Shown piece after piece: positions 5,810 to 25,437 of a stretch of DNA of 25,437 bases; position 1 is the first letter of the stretch, and each line of letters begins with the position of its first letter. The DNA lies in contig CAZTLH010000001.1 in NCBI GenBank assembly GCA_964614335.1, positions 1 to 25,437 on the forward strand. Direction: 5' to 3'. The translations under genes and the position numbers were made by a program. This DNA is from an uncultured Gammaproteobacteria bacterium (lineage in GTDB: Bacteria > Pseudomonadota > Gammaproteobacteria > Arenicellales > DRJH01). Below the pieces are notes generated by a model that worked only from the letters and a program-made list of their open reading frames with translations, did not search any database and had not been told where the DNA came from.

Positions 5810-6364
5810 ATGCCAACCATCCAATCCCTTTTCCCGCGCCAGCCGGTTCCAAAACTCAGCGTCCCAACTGTAGATGGTGAACAATGGGATCTTCAGGAAC
5901 ATTTGGGTGAGAACTTCACCCTGGTGGTGTTTTACCGCGGCCTGCATTGCCCGATCTGCAGCCGTTATTTGGGTGATCTGAATAAAAAACTCGAAAAATT
6001 CCATACACTGGGTACAGAAGTGATCGCGATCAGTGGTGATGATCGCGAACGTGCCGAACAAACCCGTGCAGATTGGCAACTGGATCGGCTGACTGTAGGT
6101 TATGATTTTAGTTTGGAAGAAGCCCGTAAGTGGGGCTTGTACATCTCCAGCAGCCGCGGTAAAACTTCTACCGGACACGAAGAACCGGCTCTATTCTCCG
6201 AGCCGGGAATGTTTCTGGTACGTAATGATGGAACTTTATATTTCGGCTCTGTACAGACCATGCCCTTCGCCCGCCCTTCATTTGCCGAAGTTCTGGGGGC
6301 ACTGGATTTCGTGCTTAAAAATGATTACCCGGCTCGTGGCGAAGTGCTCGATCACAACATCTGA
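5810..6364 (+). CDS. Peroxiredoxin-like protein (AhpC/TSA, redoxin family)
   Basis: Thioredoxin-fold pattern LVVFYRGLHCPICSRYL (CxxC), VIAISGD, FSEPGMFLV. Confidence 0.85.
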   Translation: MPTIQSLFPRQPVPKLSVPTVDGEQWDLQEHLGENFTLVVFYRGLHCPICSRYLGDLNKKLEKFHTLGTEVIAISGDDRERAEQTRADWQLDRLTVGYDFSLEEARKWGLYISSSRGKTSTGHEEPALFSEPGMFLVRNDGTLYFGSVQTMPFARPSFAEVLGALDFVLKNDYPARGEVLDHNI

Positions 6365-6671
6365 ACGGAAATTACATGTTACCCGGACGCTTCCCCTGGC
6401 ATTCTTTTAACCACTAAAGGGTTTTGGAACAGAAGTTTTCTATAGAGTACCGGGTGCTGATTTATAGCAAACCCATACAAAATTAACTCTGGGCGAAGGT
6501 GGAATTCTGGTCGAAAAGAGGCGATTATTTCAATAGGATAGAGCATAGTTACCATGTTACCACAAAATCAAAAGTGTGAAACTTGAGCCCTTCTTTATTG
6601 CTCAGTACTATAAACGATCCAGCTACTGGAGTCGAAAACTGCAGTTTGGATTGTCTTGAGGATCTTTCCAT

Positions 6672-7247
6672 ATGAAAGTGTTTCACCAGTGCCTTGGTGC
6701 GGTGTTGTTATTGTTCGCAACACTCGCCACAAGTGCTGCAGAATTAAGGAACCTGCAGTGGAAGCAATATCAACTCTCCTTTCCTGCAAGTTGGTCTGTA
6801 GTCAGAAATGAGCTCAAAAATAAAGTTCGTTTTATCGAAATACTCCCTTCTTCACGTTGGCCAGTTCACCTGCTGCTGACCCTGTTTGGTAATGCTCCCG
6901 AGCCGGATCAAACGTATCGCAACAAACCTGCCATGGCGGGTTTATCGATATGCCTGCCGATGGCATTGCAACTGGCCGGTCAGGCCAAAGGCAAGGCAAT
7001 ATCCATCAGTCTGGGCAGTATTGAGCTCAATGCCGGACCACAACCATCATCAAGATTGCGGGTGTTACTCCCGGATGGTAAACATGCTGTTCATCTCGAG
7101 TGTTTCCTGTACGCACAGCAAGGTGCTGCCTACAGCGGTATTGTCCGAACCGATACGACACTGGGTGATCTCATTGATGACCAGGCTTATCAAGATCTGG
7201 CACCAGAAATTTATTCCACCATACACAGCCTGCGTATACGGCCATAG
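6672..7247 (+). CDS. Exported hypothetical protein, possibly PsbP/DcrB-like fold
   Basis: Sec-type signal peptide ending ATSA-A; GAGGA SD; YQLSFPASW near the N-terminus and IHSLRI at the C-terminus. Confidence 0.7.
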   Translation: MKVFHQCLGAVLLLFATLATSAAELRNLQWKQYQLSFPASWSVVRNELKNKVRFIEILPSSRWPVHLLLTLFGNAPEPDQTYRNKPAMAGLSICLPMALQLAGQAKGKAISISLGSIELNAGPQPSSRLRVLLPDGKHAVHLECFLYAQQGAAYSGIVRTDTTLGDLIDDQAYQDLAPEIYSTIHSLRIRP

Positions 7248-7302
7248 CCTTCATGTTCCTGTCCCCGCTCTTTTTCAAAACTAATGGGCAATCCGATACG
7301 TC

Positions 7303-7965
7303 ATGTCTGAAAAGCCAAAAGACCATCCTGTGATCGTCGTCAATAACCTCGACGTTGAACTCGATGGTGTCCGGCTGTTGGATGATTTCTGCCTGCATCT
7401 GGATCAAGATGAGAAAGTGTCGATATCCGGGCCATCGGGTTGCGGGAAATCGACCCTGTTGCATTGTCTGCTCGGATTCATCTTGCCACAACGCGGTTCG
7501 GTCAAAATCCTTGGCCGGGAATTGACCGACCGTTCTGTATGGCAACTTCGTCCGCTGATCGCCTACGTACCACAAGAACCCATGCTCGGCCAGGGCTCGG
7601 TAGAGCAAATATTACAACGACCATTTTCTTTTAAAATCAATCGATCACAGCAATATAACCTGCAACGCATTCCTGGATTACTGGAACACCTTTTATTACC
7701 ACAAACCCTTTTGCAGCGGACTATGGAACAACTTTCCGGTGGTGAAAAACAACGTGTCGCATTGATACTGGCCTTATTGCTGGAACGAAAAATCCTGCTG
7801 CTTGACGAAGCGTCTTCGGCTCTGGATCAGGATGCCAAAATGGCCGTCATCGATCTGCTTCGAGACTCCGGGAATCTGAGTGTGCTTTCTGTTTCCCACG
7901 ATCAGGAGTGGCATGGATTTTCCAGTCGAAAAATTACTATGACAACAACGCGACCGGGCCGGTGA
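7303..7965 (+). CDS. ABC ATP-binding protein, FetA/YbbL-like
   Basis: GPSGCGKST, LSGGEKQR, ILLLDEASSALD, SVSHD; coupled to a UPF0014 membrane gene. Confidence 0.9.
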   Translation: MSEKPKDHPVIVVNNLDVELDGVRLLDDFCLHLDQDEKVSISGPSGCGKSTLLHCLLGFILPQRGSVKILGRELTDRSVWQLRPLIAYVPQEPMLGQGSVEQILQRPFSFKINRSQQYNLQRIPGLLEHLLLPQTLLQRTMEQLSGGEKQRVALILALLLERKILLLDEASSALDQDAKMAVIDLLRDSGNLSVLSVSHDQEWHGFSSRKITMTTTRPGR

Positions 7966-8759
7966 TGAATATCGTCGATATCAATCTTTGGGGTCTTGCT
8001 GCCGCCTATCTGTTACTTGTCTTTCCCCTTGGGATTATTCTCTGGTTGCGCATTCCGTTACTGGGGCAAACCTTCACAGCACTGGCCCGAATGACCCTGC
8101 AGCTGTTGTTTGTCGGGTTTTATTTACAGCTGATTTTCGATCGCAACAGTCCCTGGCTGACCGGCATCTGGATACTGGGCATGGTTATCGTGGCTGATGT
8201 ATCAATCGCCCGAGGCTGCAAACTGCATTTGCGGCGAATGGCAGCAGGCCTGTTCTTCGCCATGCTGGTTGGTGCGCTGATCCCGTTATTGTTTCTGCTG
8301 TTTGTGGTATTGCAAGACACATCCGTACTTGCAGCGCAATACATTATTCCGATTGCCGGAATGATCCTGGGAAATTGCCTACGGGCGAATATCATCGGTT
8401 TGAGCCATTTCTATCAGGCGCTCCACGACAACGAGAGATTGTATCAACTCACGCTGGCACAGGGTGCAACTCTCAAAGAAGCCCTGGCACCATTTGCCCG
8501 TGACGCCTGTCAGGCCGCTCTGGCACCGACTGTTGCGACGATCTCCACCGTCGGTCTGGTATCACTGCCAGGCATGATGACCGGCGTTATTCTCGGTGGT
8601 GGCAACCCGATGACTGCGATCAAATATCAACTGGTCATCATGATTGCCATATTCTCCGGCACCGCATTAACCGTGTTAATGGCCATTCTTCTGACCACCA
8701 GAAACAATTTTACCGTTCAGGGAACCCTGAAAAAAGGTCTTTTCCACGCCGATCGTTGA
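7965..8759 (+). CDS. ABC membrane subunit, FetB/YbbM (UPF0014) family
   Basis: RMTLQLLFVGFYL, YIIPIAGMILGN, GLVSLPGMMTGVILGG.NPMTAIKYQLVIM. ATG 7965 overlaps the upstream stop (TGATG), preferred over track start 7908. Confidence 0.9.
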   Translation: MNIVDINLWGLAAAYLLLVFPLGIILWLRIPLLGQTFTALARMTLQLLFVGFYLQLIFDRNSPWLTGIWILGMVIVADVSIARGCKLHLRRMAAGLFFAMLVGALIPLLFLLFVVLQDTSVLAAQYIIPIAGMILGNCLRANIIGLSHFYQALHDNERLYQLTLAQGATLKEALAPFARDACQAALAPTVATISTVGLVSLPGMMTGVILGGGNPMTAIKYQLVIMIAIFSGTALTVLMAILLTTRNNFTVQGTLKKGLFHADR

Positions 8760-9731: not shown

Positions 9732-9765
9732 CTTAAGTGTGCCTTAAGCAATCCATCAGTATGAT
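9732..9765 (+). promoter_or_regulatory. PmrA/QseB-type box plus -10 for the repeat lipoprotein gene
   Basis: CTTAAG-TGTGC-CTTAAG (9732-9748), then 11 nt, then TATGAT (9760-9765). Confidence 0.65.
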
Positions 9766-9809
9766 GCTCGTCACTCATTGATAATCTCTCAAATCAGGAA
9801 AAACAGACC

Positions 9810-10814
9810 ATGAAAACGACACACCGTAACTTACTCTCCCTCGCAATTGGATTAACCCTGGCTGCATCACTCAGTGCCTGTTCTGGTGGTGGATCGACAT
9901 CAGGTGGTGGATCTGTTTCCACGGCCAGTTTAGGCAAAACCACGTTAACAGGAAATATCACTGCTTTAGGTTCAAGTCCGGTTGCCATGAACCAAGGCAT
10001 CGATACGCAGATCGCACGCCTGGCAGTCCGCCAACTCTTCGCCGGTAATAATGCTCAGGCGCTGGATTGTACGTCGATTACAGCGTCAGTGGGAAGTATT
10101 TCAAAACGTGTCAGCTCTTCTTGTGACTTCAGACTGGAAGGCGTGCAGGAAGGCTCTCAAACCCTTGTACTGACTTCCTCAGCCGGAACAGCAGCAATCC
10201 CGGTGCACCTGAATCGAAATGAGACAACGCACTTGGACAATATCCGGATTACAGGAAGCACTGCCAGTTCAGATGGTCATACCATCACAAACAAAAAAAC
10301 AGGGACTACTCGTCATGAAACAGGCGAACGTAGTAGGCCTGGCCAAAACAACGATGTAAATCATGTCAGTAATGATACCAACCATAACAATACCCATGCC
10401 AGCAATGACGCCAACCATGTCAATGACAACTCCCATGCCGGCAATGACGCCAACCATGTCAATGACAACTCCCATGCCGGCAATAACATCAACCACACCA
10501 ATGACAACTCACAGACCGGCAATGACGCCAATCATGTCAATGACAACTCCCATGCCGGCAATGACACCAATCACGCCAATGACAACTCCCATGCCGGCAA
10601 TGACGCCAACCATGTCAACGACAATTCTCATGCCGGCAATAACACCAACCACGCCAATGACAGCTCTCACACCGGCAACGATGGCAACCATACCAATGAC
10701 AACTCTCACGCCAGTGACAACTTCCAAGCCGGCAATGACAGCGGCCATGCAAGCCACGGGAATGATAACGGCAATCAATGTGATCATTCTGTAGGCGTTT
10801 GCACGGCCGGTTAA
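9810..10814 (+). CDS. Lipoprotein with a small beta-rich domain and a His/Asn/Asp-rich repeat tail; function unknown
   Basis: Basic N-region, hydrophobic core, lipobox LSA-C24, Gly/Ser linker; in-frame 13-aa repeats; followed by a terminator. Confidence 0.85.
   Translation: MKTTHRNLLSLAIGLTLAASLSACSGGGSTSGGGSVSTASLGKTTLTGNITALGSSPVAMNQGIDTQIARLAVRQLFAGNNAQALDCTSITASVGSISKRVSSSCDFRLEGVQEGSQTLVLTSSAGTAAIPVHLNRNETTHLDNIRITGSTASSDGHTITNKKTGTTRHETGERSRPGQNNDVNHVSNDTNHNNTHASNDANHVNDNSHAGNDANHVNDNSHAGNNINHTNDNSQTGNDANHVNDNSHAGNDTNHANDNSHAGNDANHVNDNSHAGNNTNHANDSSHTGNDGNHTNDNSHASDNFQAGNDSGHASHGNDNGNQCDHSVGVCTAG
10404..10715 (+). repeat. Eight tandem 39-bp coding repeats (consensus NDANHVNDNSHAG)
   Basis: Units start at 10404, 10443, 10482 ... 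10677, for example AATGACGCCAACCATGTCAATGACAACTCCCATGCCGGC; degenerate half-units on both sides. Confidence 0.95.
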
Positions 10815-10865
10815 ACTGCACGCCGTCATACTCATATATTATTGGATTATCGCAACCTCTTATTG

Positions 10866-10892: not shown

Positions 10893-10976
10893 GTCGTGAC
10901 AAGACTGCATGGACAGGACAGACTGCAGGTTGTAAAGTGTCGTGGCTCTTCAACGATACATTTTGGGAAATACTCT

Positions 10977-11513: not shown

Positions 11514-12845
11514 TTAATTTGCAGGTCGAATTGGTAATGCAATTTCGACCTGTAATCCGTGCAGTGAGTGTGAATTTCTGAATATCATACTCCCACCATA
11601 ATGCTTGACAATATCACTAACAATCGACAAACCAAGGCCATGACCTTCTACAGTTTCATCAAGACGTTGACCGCGTATTGCCAATTTATCTAGTGTCGGA
11701 GCATCGAGTTCGTCGCCGTCATCCTCTACATGGATCTCGATCATGTCACCATGATGTATTCGACACAACACCCGGGAGCGGGCCCATTTAACCGCATTGT
11801 CCAGCACATTCCCGAGCAATTCCAGCATATCTTCGCGCTCACCAAATTTTGGCAAGTCAGTATCGAGATCCAGTGAAATGTCTATTGTTTTGTTCCGATG
11901 CATGGCCCGTAATGCCGACACCAGATCAGGCAGCTCTTTACGGGCATCAAACGGTGCAATAGAACTACCACTGCCAACAATTCTGGCTCGCTTCAATTCG
12001 CGCTGTATCAACTGCTGGATCCGACTGGCCTGTGTGGTCGCTATAACAACCTCAGATACTGACATTACTTTGTTGCGCTCAAGAATTTGCATCAATAACG
12101 CCAATGGTGTCTTCAAGGCATGCGCGAGATTACCCAGCGCATTGCGCGAGCGCTTCTGACGATCGCGCAACATACCCAATAAATGATTGATTTCGCTAAC
12201 TAACGGCTGGACTTCAGTGGGGACATGCTGGTTTAACTGTTCTTTTTCCCCACTGGACAAGGCCAGTATATCCTTTTGAATTTCCCCCAACTTGCGAACC
12301 GTGGTCCTGACCACCAACCGCTGTAACAATAGCAACAACAACAGTCCCGCCACAGACAAGATCGCAAAATAACGCACGAACACATTCGTTCGGTCATGAA
12401 AAGGGATCATGTCCTCGGCCACAGCAATGGTAAGATTTTGGCCCTTTCGAACAAAACCACGTGAAATCAATAATAGTTCCTGCCGCTGCGGCCCGGCCAC
12501 GGTCCTCGTTTGACTCTGCCCCGGTGCAAGATCAGAAACGGTCAGTGTAAAATCCCAGAGGGATCGGGATGTAAATGCGGTATTACCTGGATAATGAACA
12601 ATATAATAGTGGCCAGAAAAAGGCTGGCGATAGACCGCAGGCATGTGCTCTCGGACCGGACCTACATTTCGCTGCTGCAGATCGATGGAGGCTAACAGAC
12701 TTTCAATATCGTGATTGAGTTTATCTGCGACGAACTGTTGGGTTAGTGATGAAACGGCAAAGTGTCCCAACATCCAGACCGATGTCAAAACAATGACTAC
12801 ACCAATGGTCAGACTTAAATGCAGATACGATGCCAGTGACCTCAT
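11514..12845 (-). CDS. Sensor histidine kinase, PhoQ/FeuQ-like
   Basis: Two TM helices, HAMP-like region, H-box LAHALKTPL, N-box ELLGNVLDNAVKW, G2 GHGLGLSIV; start overlaps the regulator stop (ATGA). Confidence 0.93.
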   Translation of the reverse strand: MRSLASYLHLSLTIGVVIVLTSVWMLGHFAVSSLTQQFVADKLNHDIESLLASIDLQQRNVGPVREHMPAVYRQPFSGHYYIVHYPGNTAFTSRSLWDFTLTVSDLAPGQSQTRTVAGPQRQELLLISRGFVRKGQNLTIAVAEDMIPFHDRTNVFVRYFAILSVAGLLLLLLLQRLVVRTTVRKLGEIQKDILALSSGEKEQLNQHVPTEVQPLVSEINHLLGMLRDRQKRSRNALGNLAHALKTPLALLMQILERNKVMSVSEVVIATTQASRIQQLIQRELKRARIVGSGSSIAPFDARKELPDLVSALRAMHRNKTIDISLDLDTDLPKFGEREDMLELLGNVLDNAVKWARSRVLCRIHHGDMIEIHVEDDGDELDAPTLDKLAIRGQRLDETVEGHGLGLSIVSDIVKHYGGSMIFRNSHSLHGLQVEIALPIRPAN

Positions 12846-13510
12846 GTTACAGTATCAACCAGCTGGTAACCTCGGCCACGATGGGTGTGGATCGCATTCG
12901 TATGCAGTTTCTCGCGTAAATTATGAATATAAACTTCAAGAACATTGCTGTCACCGGAACCTTCATCATCGTACAACAACTCAATCAAACGGGTTTTCGA
13001 GAGGATTTTACCGCTGTTAAGCATAAAGATTTTTAGTAATCGAAACTCCATCGCCGTCAGTCGCGTTGCGTTCCCATTCCTGTCGATGACCTGATACTGG
13101 TCTTCATTAAGGGTCAGACCGGCAACGGTCAGGTGTTGACCTGCCTGACCGGCGGCTCTTCGTAGCAAGGCCTCCACACGGGCTTTAAGTTCTTCAAAAT
13201 GAAAGGGTTTGCCCACATAGTCATCCGCGCCAGCCTGCAGGCCGGAAACCCGTTCTGACCACCCATCTCTTGCCGTCAGAATAATGACCGGTACAGCATT
13301 TTCGTTGTTACGCCAGTTTTTCAGCACTTCCAGACCACTGCGACCCGGCAAGCCGAGGTCAAGAATAATGGCAGCATAACCGACTTCATCACCCATAAAT
13401 TGGGCATCAATGCCATTGTCCACCACATCCACTGCGTAACCGCATTGCTGCAATTCATTACTCAGCACATCGGACAGCCCCTTGTCATCCTCTGCCAGTA
13501 GAAGTCTCAT
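12842..13510 (-). CDS. OmpR-family response regulator (PhoP/FeuP-like receiver, PmrA/QseB-like recognition helix)
   Basis: LLAEDD, ILDLGLP (phospho-Asp), ILTAR, GADDYVGKPF, winged helix SNVLEVYIHNLREKL...RGRGY. Confidence 0.95.
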   Translation of the reverse strand: MRLLLAEDDKGLSDVLSNELQQCGYAVDVVDNGIDAQFMGDEVGYAAIILDLGLPGRSGLEVLKNWRNNENAVPVIILTARDGWSERVSGLQAGADDYVGKPFHFEELKARVEALLRRAAGQAGQHLTVAGLTLNEDQYQVIDRNGNATRLTAMEFRLLKIFMLNSGKILSKTRLIELLYDDEGSGDSNVLEVYIHNLREKLHTNAIHTHRGRGYQLVDTVT

Positions 13511-13534: not shown

Positions 13535-13746
13535 GGAGGCTGTCCGAGAACAGGAGCCGACCGGTTTGTTGCTCCTGCAAAACCGGCACTTCCGCCATCC
13601 ATGGCGGTCGTAGCGAGGGAAAGCGGATTTGAGGACATTTTTTCGATCCTTTGAGGCGAATAGTCATTCTATTTAACGAAAATGAGCGGAAAAATGGACC
13701 AAAGCCCGATTTTCCGCAGTAGGCTCTCTGTTCTCGGACAGCCTCC
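13535..13746. mobile_element. 212-bp MITE with 19-bp perfect terminal inverted repeats and TA target duplication
   Basis: Left end GGAGGCTGTCCGAGAACAG (13535-13553); right end CTGTTCTCGGACAGCCTCC (13728-13746); TA at 13533-13534 and 13747-13748; internal hairpin CCGCCAT-CC-ATGGCGG (13592-13607); no transposase. Confidence 0.88.
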
Positions 13747-14042
13747 TAATCAGTTTCAATTTTTTGTTTAATGATTGTACCACTAGATGCATCGACCTCG
13801 ATCTCCAGCACTTCCCCGCCAGGGTTTACAAAATCCAGTTCATAAACAGGCAAATCATATTTGCTTTCAAGCTTGACTTTGAGCAAGTGATACCCCGGCA
13901 ATTCTTTTTGAAGAGCGGATAATATCTTGTCAAGGGACAAAATTTTTCCACTGGCGAGCATTTCGCGAACTTCCAGCTGTTCCTGATTGAAGTCGTCCGC
14001 CACACTAACCTGAACTGCCAGCATGATCAAAAAACCGATCAT
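13746..14042 (-). CDS. PepSY-domain periplasmic protein
   Basis: Hydrophobic signal; ILSLDKIL...LKVKLE...VYELDFV..GEVLEIEVDASSGTII PepSY pattern; usual neighbour of this TCS type. The frame is open upstream to 14075, so the start is uncertain. Confidence 0.85.
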   Translation of the reverse strand: MIGFLIMLAVQVSVADDFNQEQLEVREMLASGKILSLDKILSALQKELPGYHLLKVKLESKYDLPVYELDFVNPGGEVLEIEVDASSGTIIKQKIETD

Positions 14043-14068: not shown

Positions 14069-14581
14069 TCAGTCGTCACCACCACGGCTACGCCCTGGAA
14101 TTCGGACACCGTGCTCACTAAATACACCCTGCTTTGCGCCTGTGTGGCAGGCATCGCAACGAGCAAAGGTTTTGACCTTTGGATTGCCTGTTACCCACCG
14201 TGAAGGCACTTCATTATGGGCCCGATGAAACCAGGTAGTATCGGTAATCCGGTTTGACTTTGATGTCGCTGACGAGAACCAGCGACGACCCGAGGCATTT
14301 TTTTGTAAATACTGGCTGATTAATTTTGACGTTTCAGGAGACAACTCTGCGTTATCACCGAAATGGTCGGCTAAATTACTCATAATCCCTTTCCAGCTTT
14401 TAGAAGACAAACCTTTTGTTGGATAGGCAACGTGACATGCACTGCATTCAGTTTGATATGCCTTTGAACCTTGACTGGCCAGTGCGACACCTGATTGCGC
14501 CAGCCATAAACTGACGGTCAACATCAGCAAGCCGGTTAAGCCGGTTAAGCCGGTTAAAGAGGACTGAATTTTTTTCATCAT
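14069..14581 (-). CDS. Diheme cytochrome c (DHC family), paralog 1
   Basis: Signal peptide; ECSACH, SWKGIMSNLADHFG, RITDTTWFHRAH, RCDACH; AAGGAG SD. Confidence 0.92.
   Translation of the reverse strand: MMKKIQSSLTGLTGLTGLLMLTVSLWLAQSGVALASQGSKAYQTECSACHVAYPTKGLSSKSWKGIMSNLADHFGDNAELSPETSKLISQYLQKNASGRRWFSSATSKSNRITDTTWFHRAHNEVPSRWVTGNPKVKTFARCDACHTGAKQGVFSEHGVRIPGRSRGGDD
14531..14557. repeat. Three perfect 9-bp tandem repeats (GCCGGTTAA)3 encoding LTGLTGLTG in the DHC signal peptide
   Basis: Direct reading of the sequence. Confidence 0.9.
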
Positions 14582-14626: not shown

Positions 14627-15028
14627 TTATTGAGCGGACAAAAATTGTAATACATCACCTTTTTCCTGTGCTGTACACACACGTCCGAGAACCCACTTGC
14701 AATTACGCCGGAACCATTTTTTCACCTTTTTGGCTTCGGTCAAACGAGCTGGATTGACTGATGGTGCCATAGGCTTGATCACCTTCCCCGTCTTGACATG
14801 CTTGCCAGACACCTTCAGGTTCCTGGTATGACAGCCAGTACAATCACGTTGTTTGCCCGCTTTCGCGTTGTTGTGTTTGGTATTCCAAAAAGTCTGCCCG
14901 GCGGCTGCCGTGAAAGGGCCCGCACCGGCTGCCTGGTACTTGCTTTGCAAATCGGATACCACACTCGCAGATGCCAGCAATGGCATTGCAGTCAATAACA
15001 GGACTACAGGTAATTTGAATCGTCGCAT
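14627..15028 (-). CDS. SHP-type (Sphaeroides heme protein, DUF1924) monoheme cytochrome c
   Basis: Signal peptide; CTGCH; GKVIKPMAPSVNPARLT; KWFRRNC...LGRVC with the family's axial Asn and C-terminal disulfide pair; adjacent to DHC. Confidence 0.9.
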   Translation of the reverse strand: MRRFKLPVVLLLTAMPLLASASVVSDLQSKYQAAGAGPFTAAAGQTFWNTKHNNAKAGKQRDCTGCHTRNLKVSGKHVKTGKVIKPMAPSVNPARLTEAKKVKKWFRRNCKWVLGRVCTAQEKGDVLQFLSAQ

Positions 15029-15086: not shown

Positions 15087-15119
15087 AGCATACACCGGGA
15101 TACTTAATTAAGGCTTAAG
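15087..15119 (-). promoter_or_regulatory. PmrA/QseB-type box plus -10 for the SHP-DHC-PepSY-TCS operon
   Basis: On - strand CTTAAG-CCTTA-ATTAAG (15119-15103), then 10 nt, then TATGCT (15092-15087); overlaps the DsbA-like stop codon. Confidence 0.6.
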
Positions 15120-22452: not shown

Positions 22453-22480
22453 ATTTTAACCCTTGATTAAGAAACCTGAA

Positions 22481-25335: not shown

Positions 25336-25437
25336 CTGACTCTTATACACATATACGAACCCACGAGACTAAAGCGAATAACGTAAGCCGGCTCTACATG
25401 AAAAAAACAAACACACACAACAAACAGCACAAAACGA
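25336..25437 (+). other. Untrimmed Illumina Nextera adapter read-through (artefact)
   Basis: 25336-25369 matches CTGTCTCTTATACACATCTCCGAGCCCACGAGAC at 30/34; 25370-25377 TAAAGCGA matches index N701 TAAGGCGA at 7/8; 25378-25400 is a degraded ATCTCGTATGCCGTCTTCTGCTTG; then an A/C-rich tail. Confidence 0.95.

Follow-up and report, generated by a model that had tools for sequence, protein, structure and literature searches.

Why would a bacterial lipoprotein end in some 155 residues in which histidine recurs alternately every six and seven positions, and what might such a tail bind? This question is raised by a 334-amino acid (aa) protein encoded on a 25,437-nucleotide (nt) stretch of DNA from an uncultured Gammaproteobacteria bacterium (Arenicellales, DRJH01; GenBank assembly GCA_964614335.1, contig CAZTLH010000001.1, positions 1 to 25,437), which we refer to as the window. 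The original prediction for this DNA proposed either a β-solenoid or functional amyloid-like rod, built on ladders of Asn and His and binding metal or heme, or a disordered metal sponge. The analysis presented here places even odds (a probability of roughly 0.5) on a lipoprotein of the cell envelope that is induced by stress and binds divalent metal cations through its disordered, polyanionic His/Asp/Asn tail, which would act as a high-capacity buffer. Disorder is predicted both by the predicted local distance difference test (pLDDT) and by charge and hydropathy, and the sponge is favored because of a conserved operator, a neighboring cognate two-component system, the metal-efflux loci of remote relatives, and an iron-mat habitat; the tail harbors none of the canonical metal-binding motifs examined.

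The lipoprotein and its periodic tail

The tail (residues 180–334, encoded with the stop codon by window positions 10347–10814) consists of 45 Asn, 21 His, 20 Asp, 16 Ala, 15 Ser, 14 Gly, 9 Thr, 8 Val, 3 Gln, 2 Cys, 1 Ile, and 1 Phe. Asn accounts for 29% and His for 13.5% of these 155 residues; Leu, Met, Trp, Tyr, Lys, Arg, Glu, and Pro are absent entirely, and the Shannon entropy is 3.0 bits versus 3.8 bits in the folded domain. Successive His residues are spaced by 7, 4, 7, 6, 7, 6, 7, 13, 6, 7, 6, 7, 6, 7, 6, 7, 6, 13, 3, and 10 positions, with the 6/7 alternation broken only where Gln or Ala substitutes for His. The tail holds 16 ND-x-x-H half-units, which in register give a 13-aa consensus, D-N-S-H-A-G-N-D-A-N-H-V-N, present in eight to nine units. 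Composition and periodicity are both far beyond chance. The descriptive part of the original prediction, namely a lipoprotein with a tail of ≈155 residues and 21 His, half-units alternating 6 and 7, eight full 13-aa units, almost no large hydrophobic residues, a C324-x6-C331 cap, and a C87/C105 pair in the folded domain, is borne out on every point by the translation, the lipobox L-S-A-C, the count of His spacings, and the repeat analysis described below.

The five Cys residues of the protein are C24, C87, C105, C324, and C331, the first of which belongs to the lipobox. The signal peptide combines a K/R-containing n-region and a hydrophobic h-region with a lipobox that fits [LVI][ASTVI][GAS]C, and Cys24 is invariant across 20 aligned family members. 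In E. coli, Ser at position +2 sorts a lipoprotein to the outer membrane, and by this rule the Ser found here at +2 suggests outer-membrane sorting. Other frames and the opposite strand are also open across the array (including 10363–10794 on the plus strand and 10509–10835 on the minus strand); we rejected these ORFs (open reading frames) as genes and regard them as by-products of the repeat. The lipoprotein reading frame is itself fixed by conservation of the N-terminal domain and the terminal Cys loop. An intrinsic terminator follows the stop codon (Table 1), and the gene is therefore monocistronic.

Origin of the repeat array

Tandem Repeats Finder detects a 39-nt period at 10393–10712 with 8.2 copies, 82% matches, no indels, and a score of 409, which is outscored by the 78-nt double-unit period (85% matches, score of 451). 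The units are pairwise 72 to 97% identical, with exact repeats of up to 44 nt, so that the DNA is indeed repeated, as originally proposed, but "near-identical" overstates the case. Because the units have diverged and many of their differences are synonymous, the array is not very young; of the "recent expansion" claimed earlier, restriction to this lineage stands, with units that have since diverged. An identical 334-aa gene is present in two independent metagenome assemblies besides the window (L010, 100% identical, and L009, 99.9% identical, with nine single-nucleotide polymorphisms, or SNPs, relative to the window and none in the lipoprotein gene). Array length is thus reproducible, with no obvious sign of the assembly artefact that the original prediction had entertained.

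A full-length search of 5.8 billion proteins retrieved only two homologues, P0001 (237 aa) and P0002 (223 aa). A first metagenome scan with the whole lipoprotein found nothing, and a second, together with a genome scan, added one further variant and offered no copy-number variants of the array to compare. This third homologue is a 236-aa protein from the "Gammaproteobacteria bacterium HyVt-412" metagenome-assembled genome (MAG; L011), and an identical protein is encoded in a marine sediment assembly (L012). Close homologues share 54 to 60% identity across residues 1–175; their tails are 48 to 60 aa long, aperiodic, and rich in Asn, Ser, Asp, and Gly, with 5 to 8% His and a net charge of −7 to −13. 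Tail length thus spans 48 to 155 aa among the four close members, all of which keep a C-x5/6-C loop at the C terminus, as does the more remote member P0014. A tail-only query of the same 5.8 billion proteins yielded 470 candidates that share words with it, none of them at E ≤ 10, in a type of search that composition filters limit; at the sensitivity of these searches, the repeat is apparently unique.

Comparison of these tails points to how the array arose. The P0001 tail contains one NDSSH and one NDSNHVND, and the amplified unit looks to have been seeded by the ND-x-N-H-V-ND stretch that is single-copy there; the window tail evidently grew in this lineage through amplification of the 39-nt (and 78-nt) unit. 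At the P0001 locus, ≈320 nt upstream of the gene, we also find a 55-aa ORF (L001, 5462–5629; also in L002–L005) that resembles the lipoprotein signal peptide (MKTATRNLL…; tblastn E = 0.002 versus window 9810–9875) and may be a remnant of an older duplication.

Selection on the repeat unit

To obtain the pattern of change within the array, the nine units were compared position by position against the consensus, and synonymous and non-synonymous counts were subjected to a Fisher test. The polar positions D1, N2, S3, H4, N7, N10, H11, and N13 show 15 synonymous and seven non-synonymous differences, versus none and 12, respectively, at the small apolar positions 5, 9, and 12 (p = 1.4e-4). The Asn, Asp, Ser, and His positions are, by this codon evidence, held by purifying selection, and the small apolar positions drift. 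What is preserved are side chains that are potential ligands, with no hydrophobic core, which is the opposite of what a β-solenoid leads one to expect.

The same data bear on the notion that the repeat expanded as neutral or diversifying low-complexity sequence, through slippage or as a surface epitope whose variation evades phage or grazers, and has no ligand function. A unit length divisible by three, the lineage-specific array, and the wide range of tail lengths among the four close homologues are all in keeping with such an origin. However, three assemblies carry the identical array, one of them from a strain with nine SNPs elsewhere, synonymous changes are in excess at the polar positions, and the Asn/Asp/His character and terminal Cys loop are conserved across homologues; we consider this explanation quite unlikely.

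Predicted structure

AlphaFold2 run with a three-sequence alignment gave a mean pLDDT of 41.6 and a tail that is coil. With a 19-sequence alignment, residues 90–170 form an all-β sandwich at a pLDDT of 92 to 96, accompanied by a strand at 44–54 and a helix at 66–78. Residues 175–334 are coil in both runs, with a pLDDT of ≈38 to 51 overall and 40 to 51 with the larger alignment, which is the outcome of the structure prediction that had been proposed as a check on the rod. Only ten tail residues belong to the hydrophobic set (L, I, M, F, W, Y, and V), eight of which are Val, and the mean normalized hydropathy of 0.318 falls below the folding boundary of 0.46 at the net charge of the tail, i.e., in the "natively unfolded" zone of a charge–hydropathy plot. 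We conclude that the tail is probably disordered rather than a solenoid.

The N-terminal half is, in this model, a carboxypeptidase-regulatory-like β-sandwich (residues 90–171). Foldseek searches of the PDB returned generic β-sandwich modules with weak scores (best E of 4e-3), among them X-modules, EMC7, a teneurin carboxypeptidase-like domain, and the SusC N-terminal extension, with no enzyme fold and no known metal-binding fold among the matches. The window protein itself has no Pfam match to CarboxypepD_reg (PF13620/PF13715) even at E ≤ 1, but a profile of its domain reaches proteins with PF13620 (13 of the 20 aligned members match, best E of 7.9e-11), and one of the relatives, P0003, harbors eight tandem copies of the carboxypeptidase-regulatory-like domain. 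Homology searches thus place the N-terminal domain among CarboxypepD_reg lipoproteins and leave the tail without a match. Pfam and NCBIfam scans of the lipoprotein gave nothing else apart from a subthreshold match to Lysostaphin_N (PF25533; 29.7 bits at residues 203–301 versus a gathering threshold of 60 bits), which we rejected as a coincidence of two 13-residue periodicities.

These results argue against a β-solenoid or functional amyloid-like rod, in which Asn and His ladders would stack with one 13-residue unit per rung and perhaps bind metal or heme. The very regular 13-aa period and the conservation of Asn, Gly, and Ser at fixed positions are what such a rod would show; Asn ladders and short rungs are known in some antifreeze β-helices, and AlphaFold2 is blind to folds that depend on metal or oligomerization. 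The tail likewise resembles known β-solenoids (RTX β-rolls and the antifreeze β-helices of insects and bacteria) in its short-period repeats with conserved Gly, Asn, and Asp, but differs from them in lacking the RTX nonapeptide GGxGxDxUx (zero GG.G.D matches in the whole protein), EF-hand motifs, and hydrophobic or disulfide core positions. Each half-unit offers a single small apolar residue, which sits at the most variable positions, and disulfide rungs are absent. With 20 negative charges left uncompensated, stacking would be disfavored, and the short, aperiodic tails of the homologues speak against a conserved fold. Together with the low hydropathy and the coil in both predictions, these points make the rod very unlikely. 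Heme binding finds no sequence support, as the heme-attachment motif CxxCH has zero matches in the lipoprotein; the neighboring DHC genes do encode it.

A conserved operator upstream of the lipoprotein gene

Sixty-two nt upstream of the lipoprotein ATG lies a direct repeat, CTTAAGtgtgcCTTAAG, that is an exact fit to the BqsR/CarR box TTAAG(N6)TTAAG and equally to a PmrA-type box. In Pseudomonas aeruginosa, the BqsR regulon promotes tolerance of cationic stress, and at induced promoters BqsR binds TTAAG(N6)TTAAG where this overlaps the −35 site (PMC4358008); a box overlapping the −35 site is also described in a 2026 study (PMC13522522), and the Salmonella PmrA box is CTTAAG-N5-xTTAAT (PMC3973317). 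The lipoprotein promoter has no recognizable −35 hexamer, which suggests that it is activator-dependent. A box is found at an identical 11-nt distance from TATAGT upstream of every close homologue (L001–L008, L011, and L012), where the flanks have diverged from those of the window and the locus lies between genes for a LolC/LolD-like ATP-binding cassette (ABC) transporter and an M16 peptidase. A second exact box in the window precedes the DUF1924 gene that heads the neighboring operon; it is conserved in the related contigs L021 (7926) and L023 (6990), 10 nt from TATGCT/TATACT, and is presumably the autoregulatory site of the two-component operon.

Seven exact boxes occur in 84 kb of non-redundant related DNA, versus 0.2 expected and a maximum of two in 200 shuffles, and all seven are upstream of lipoprotein genes or DUF1924 operons, 10 to 11 nt from a −10 hexamer. 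The lipoprotein family is likely to be under PmrA/BqsR-type control. The window gene would be controlled by the adjacent two-component system, for which we infer binding, direction of control, and inducing signal. A one-mismatch box, TTAACCCTTGATTAAG, at 22456–22471 (plus strand) in the flgF–flgE intergenic region, on the strand opposite the genes, is probably a chance match. An Rfam scan of the window found no RNA family.

The neighboring two-component operon

Downstream, on the minus strand, lies an operon in the order DUF1924, DHC1, PepSY, response regulator, and histidine kinase (Table 1). The closest solved relative of the regulator is P. aeruginosa CarR/BqsR for both domains in PDB sequence searches: the receiver domain matches 8gc6 at 132 bits (≈59% identity by hand count of the alignment), and the DNA-binding domain matches 9yfa at 80 bits (≈51% identity, also by hand count), with the next match at 52.6 bits. 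Its best NCBIfam match is PmrA, below cutoff. The order PepSY, regulator, kinase is that of BqsPQRS and of Vibrio cholerae DbfQRS (PMC12714742). The kinase family conserves an invariant H45-D46-x-E48 directly after the first transmembrane segment and invariant SGHYY and SRSLWD sequences in the periplasmic domain; the Fe(II)-sensing R44-E45-x-x-E48 of P. aeruginosa BqsS is found at about the position of this H45-D46-x-E48. Closest kinase homologues share 69 to 74% identity, and more distant ones (45 to 50%) are found in the sulfur-oxidizing gammaproteobacteria Sedimenticola, a Solemya symbiont, Ca. Thiodiazotropha, and Chromatiales.

Comparison of the window with L021 and L023 reveals how the lipoprotein gene came to lie beside its presumed regulator. 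These contigs are arranged GlnD-Map-DsbA-[box]-DUF1924-DHC-PepSY-regulator-kinase-EamA, with neither a lipoprotein gene nor a second dihaem cytochrome gene, DHC2, at the kinase–EamA junction; the window has the same order but carries ≈1.7 kb extra between kinase and EamA, consisting of the lipoprotein gene and DHC2. These two genes are therefore a lineage-specific insertion, and the ancestral location of the lipoprotein appears to be the lolCD–M16 locus. DHC2 has its own promoter-like site at 10910–10938. We rejected a shared operator for DHC2 (its best site has four mismatches, and a terminator separates it from the lipoprotein gene) and also its origin as a recent duplicate of DHC1 (30% identity). 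As marine sediment assemblies of near-equal coverage (4.1 versus 4.06), L021 and L012 may derive from a single organism.

DUF1924 and DHC genes head the operon in L021 and L023 as well and are not part of the PepSY-regulator-kinase module of PMC12714742, and the cytochrome genes hint at a redox input or output of this BqsRS-like operon. A DsbA-like gene lies just upstream of the operon's box. The signal-peptide region of DHC1 contains a perfect 9-nt tandem repeat, AAGCCGGTT (3.2 copies; 14529–14557, minus strand), that encodes LTG-LTG-LTG.

Table 1 Features of the lipoprotein gene, its promoter, and the neighboring two-component operon in the window
Feature	Position	Strand	Basis
Lipoprotein gene, 334 aa, stop codon included	9810–10814	+	ORF list; homologues P0001, P0002, L011
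Direct repeat CTTAAGtgtgcCTTAAG (CTTAAG-N5-CTTAAG) over −35 position of lipoprotein promoter	9732–9748	+	Exact match
−10-like hexamer TATGAT, 11 nt past box	9760–9765	+	Sequence reading
Shine–Dalgarno-like AGGAAA, ATG 10 nt further on	9796–9801	+	Sequence reading
Signal peptide and lipobox L-S-A-C (residues 21–24); Cys24 as lipidation site, Ser at +2	9810–9881	+	Regular-expression match
Flexible Gly/Ser-rich linker after Cys24, SGGGSTSGGGSVSTASLG	9882–9935	+	Translation; pLDDT <50 at residues 25–39; family-conserved
Folded domain (residues 43–175) with Cys87/Cys105 pair	9936–10334	+	AlphaFold2; profile search; Pfam; Foldseek
Asn/His/Asp low-complexity tail (residues 180–323), predicted disordered, net charge ≈−20	10347–10778	+	Composition; both models; charge–hydropathy
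Tandem array, nine 39-nt units, higher-order 78-nt period	10386–10736	+	Tandem Repeats Finder; unit identity matrix; per-position codons
Terminal Cys324-x6-Cys331 loop	10779–10802	+	Alignments, sequences
Intrinsic terminator, 10-bp stem with seven G-C pairs, T-run; 50 nt past stop codon	10865–10897	+	Terminator scan
DHC2, second dihaem cytochrome c gene, 171 aa	10977–11492	+	Pfam DHC 4.7e-29
PhoQ/BqsS-type sensor histidine kinase	11514–12845	−	Pfam, NCBIfam; family alignment
OmpR-family response regulator	12842–13510	−	PDB sequence searches
Small secreted PepSY protein, immediately upstream of regulator	13746–14042	−	Pfam PepSY, 38.8 bits versus cutoff of 24
DHC1, periplasmic c-type cytochrome gene	14069–14581	−	Pfam
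DUF1924 periplasmic c-type cytochrome gene, operon head	14627–15028	−	Pfam
Second exact box cTTAAGccttaaTTAAG, 10 nt upstream of TATGCT, ≈75 nt before DUF1924 start	15103–15119	−	Exact match

Remote relatives and habitat

The N-terminal-domain profile, searched against 1.84 billion representative sequences, retrieved 22 further weak relatives. Most of those examined are lipoproteins of 170 to 350 aa with a lipobox, a GGGS linker, a "TVxGN[IV]xS" strand, a β-sandwich, and a low-complexity tail of varying composition (rich in Asp/Glu, Pro/Thr/His, Asn/Gly, or Ser/Gly), in which Cys/His modules occasionally occur. In P0011 and P0018, the low-complexity tail is replaced by one to five Cys/His modules, C-H-x(n)-H-x-x-H-G-D-x-x-G-x-C, that look like a metal-binding cassette. 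We also tried the family as carrier of bacterial N-glycosylation sequons and rejected this, as there is a single D/E-x-N-x-S/T site and the conserved GN[IV]x is inconsistent as a sequon. Seven remote loci were examined, of which none has a BqsR/PmrA-type box or the neighbors found in the window. P0005 directly follows a CzcCBA-type resistance–nodulation–division (RND) efflux pump, and the P0006 locus includes a heavy-metal P-type ATPase. A secreted protein of ≈151 aa, absent from the window, follows four remote members (L015, 6847–7305; L016, 6486–6941; L017, 841–1296; and L018, 3048–3521); these partners are 37 to 59% mutually identical, the one representative scanned matches no Pfam family above threshold, and at two of the four loci, two small membrane proteins precede.

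The exact P0001 protein is encoded on a contig of run SRR6114197, which the FeGenie paper (PMC7005843) records as a hydrothermal Fe microbial mat at Loihi Seamount, and P0001 and the window protein occur together in two Joint Genome Institute (JGI) samples. The L011/L012 homologue comes from a MAG of hydrothermal-vent origin and from an assembly of marine sediment. Elsewhere in the window, positions 5810–8759 (plus strand) encode a redox protein related to peroxiredoxin/SelL, a 191-aa protein that matches no family, and an ABC pair resembling FetA/FetB (UPF0014), for which the FetAB matches are the best ones yet fall below NCBIfam cutoffs; this cluster may be an iron-efflux and oxidative-stress module upstream of EamA. 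The very end of the window (25404–25435), upstream of flgB, holds a 13-nt tandem repeat, AAAACAAACAGCAC, in 2.4 copies.

What the tail may bind

The mechanism that we propose begins with the kinase, which would sense a periplasmic signal, be it Fe(II), some other cation, or stress on the envelope. Once phosphorylated, the regulator would bind the box and turn on the lipoprotein gene, and the product would be exported, lipidated, and probably delivered to the outer membrane, given the Ser at +2. In the periplasm or at the surface, the flexible tail, with ≈16 Asp(i)–His(i+3) pairs, could bind divalent metals as a buffer of high capacity and low specificity, possibly compacting on loading, and the Cys loop at its end may serve as a cap or supply a ligand pair. 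Ligand sets of His and carboxylate suit Fe2+, Zn2+, Ni2+, Co2+, and Cu2+, and we hold transition-metal binding as the function of the tail to be an evenly balanced proposition.

Several observations weigh against this assignment. The canonical motifs HH, HxH, HxxHxH, CxxC, CxxCH, HxxM/Met-His, RTX GGxGxD, and EF-hand are all absent from the tail, and the HxxHxH motif of the zinc-binding histidine-triad (Pht) lipoproteins has zero matches in the whole lipoprotein. Asn, the commonest tail residue, is a poor transition-metal ligand, and disordered low-complexity tails can serve as mere spacers. Folding induced by metal is invisible to AlphaFold2, and the tail is covered by a shallow alignment. 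Five of the seven remote loci are short contigs or have uninformative neighbors. The kinase lacks the RExxE Fe(II) motif and has HDxE instead, as judged by motif inspection with no direct alignment to PaBqsS, and in V. cholerae, DbfS shows no iron response, its module responding to membrane integrity (PMC12714742). Finally, both activation and repression are reported for boxes overlapping promoter elements (PMC13522522), and we only infer the direction of control, because such boxes can also repress.

Some of the same evidence would suit a less specific polyanion, i.e., a shield against hard cations (Ca2+ and Mg2+) or organic polycations (polyamines and cationic peptides), a spacer, or an entropic bristle that positions the β-sandwich or the Cys loop, with His incidental or pH-titratable. 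The tails of remote relatives are Asp/Glu-, Ser/Gly-, or Pro/Thr-rich with little or no His, the BqsR regulon is described as protecting against general cationic stress, with a top gene whose product is proposed to bind molecules of positive charge, CarSR is reported as Ca2+-responsive, and the orthologous V. cholerae module responds to membrane integrity and not to iron (PMC12714742). Asn and Asp are, moreover, classic Ca2+ ligands. Yet His is kept at both repeat positions (eight of nine units each) through synonymous change (five changes), its share has nearly doubled relative to the homologues (13.5% versus 5 to 8%), and it is no ligand of Ca2+ or Mg2+, which are constant in seawater and thus unlikely to be an inducible stress. 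We regard such a shield or spacer as unlikely, though with appreciable weight.

A bolder extension of metal buffering, which we view as a long shot, is that on metal loading, the 13-residue units, each with two Asp-x-x-His pairs, condense into an ordered stack of metal sites, displayed on the envelope under an iron-sensing two-component system and managing Fe(II) toxicity or encrustation by iron oxides in hydrothermal iron mats. Such a metal-templated stack could serve as a metal "wire" bound to protein or as a surface that promotes or prevents nucleation, and the co-inserted DHC2 might be its redox partner.

Comparison with known metal-binding and cation-stress systems

SilE is a disordered periplasmic metal sponge (PMC5008109). 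The window tail shares with SilE and PcoE periplasmic export, disorder in the absence of metal (here predicted), many regularly spaced His, and a high capacity (here proposed), but there is no homology; SilE is small and soluble and uses His and Met (HxxM/MxxH) to bind Ag+/Cu+, motifs not found in the window tail, and it has no lipid anchor, β-sandwich, DNA tandem repeat, or Asn richness, all four of which characterize the window lipoprotein. The genes for SilE and PcoE adjoin, and are controlled by, a metal-responsive two-component system, in a further parallel to the arrangement proposed for the window gene. Tandem repeats of His, Ala, and Asp also occur in the Plasmodium HRP2-type proteins, which are disordered and bind Zn2+ and heme. 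These share with the window tail short repeats rich in His and Asp; they are, however, eukaryotic and unrelated, contain His–His pairs, and have no lipid anchor. The Ni/Zn storage tails of Hpn, the HypB N terminus, the SlyD and UreE C termini, and CooJ (e.g., PMC12284835) are likewise disordered His/acidic segments on a folded domain that bind several ions each, but they are cytoplasmic, with clustered His (HH and HxH) and no tandem 13-aa repeats, whereas the His residues of the window tail are isolated at 6/7 spacing.

On the regulatory side, a close parallel is the BqsR/CarR regulon of P. aeruginosa, in which an envelope protein gene such as that for the periplasmic OB-fold protein PA14_04180/CarO lies behind TTAAG(N6)TTAAG over the −35 site (PMC4358008, PMC13522522), and which also features an autoregulated PepSY-regulator-kinase operon and a proposed role in Fe(II) or cation stress. 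The protein fold and family are different, however, the window kinase has HDxE and not RExxE, and the window operon adds two c-type cytochrome genes. PmrA/PmrB (BasRS) of Enterobacteria (PMC3973317) share a near-identical operator, CTTAAG-N5-xTTAAT, and an iron/acid response with envelope remodeling. The DNA-binding domain of the window regulator matches PmrA/BasR at 42 to 44 bits versus 80 bits for CarR/BqsR. To our knowledge, the PmrA regulon includes no such lipoprotein.

Implications

Disordered, His-rich metal-binding segments are an already known kind; what is new here is the lipoprotein/β-sandwich architecture, the strictly periodic ND-x-x-H repeat, the conserved operator, and relocation beside the sensor in a bacterium of iron-rich marine settings. 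A small uncharacterized lipoprotein family gains a testable placement, as all four close members lie behind a BqsRS/PmrAB-type cation-stress operator, and one of the four, now relocated to the sensor's side, has a His/Asp tail grown threefold. Should the tail bind nothing, it would be an ordinary low-complexity expansion. If metal binding is true, the protein would be a lipid-anchored counterpart to SilE and similar periplasmic metal sponges, the BqsR-type regulon would extend beyond Pseudomonas to sulfur- and iron-associated marine gammaproteobacteria, and a natural, highly regular His/Asp repeat would be available as a scaffold on which to study how disordered proteins bind metal multivalently. 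Bacteria of Fe(II)-rich habitats must avoid both iron toxicity and mineral encrustation, a task for which few envelope proteins are known.

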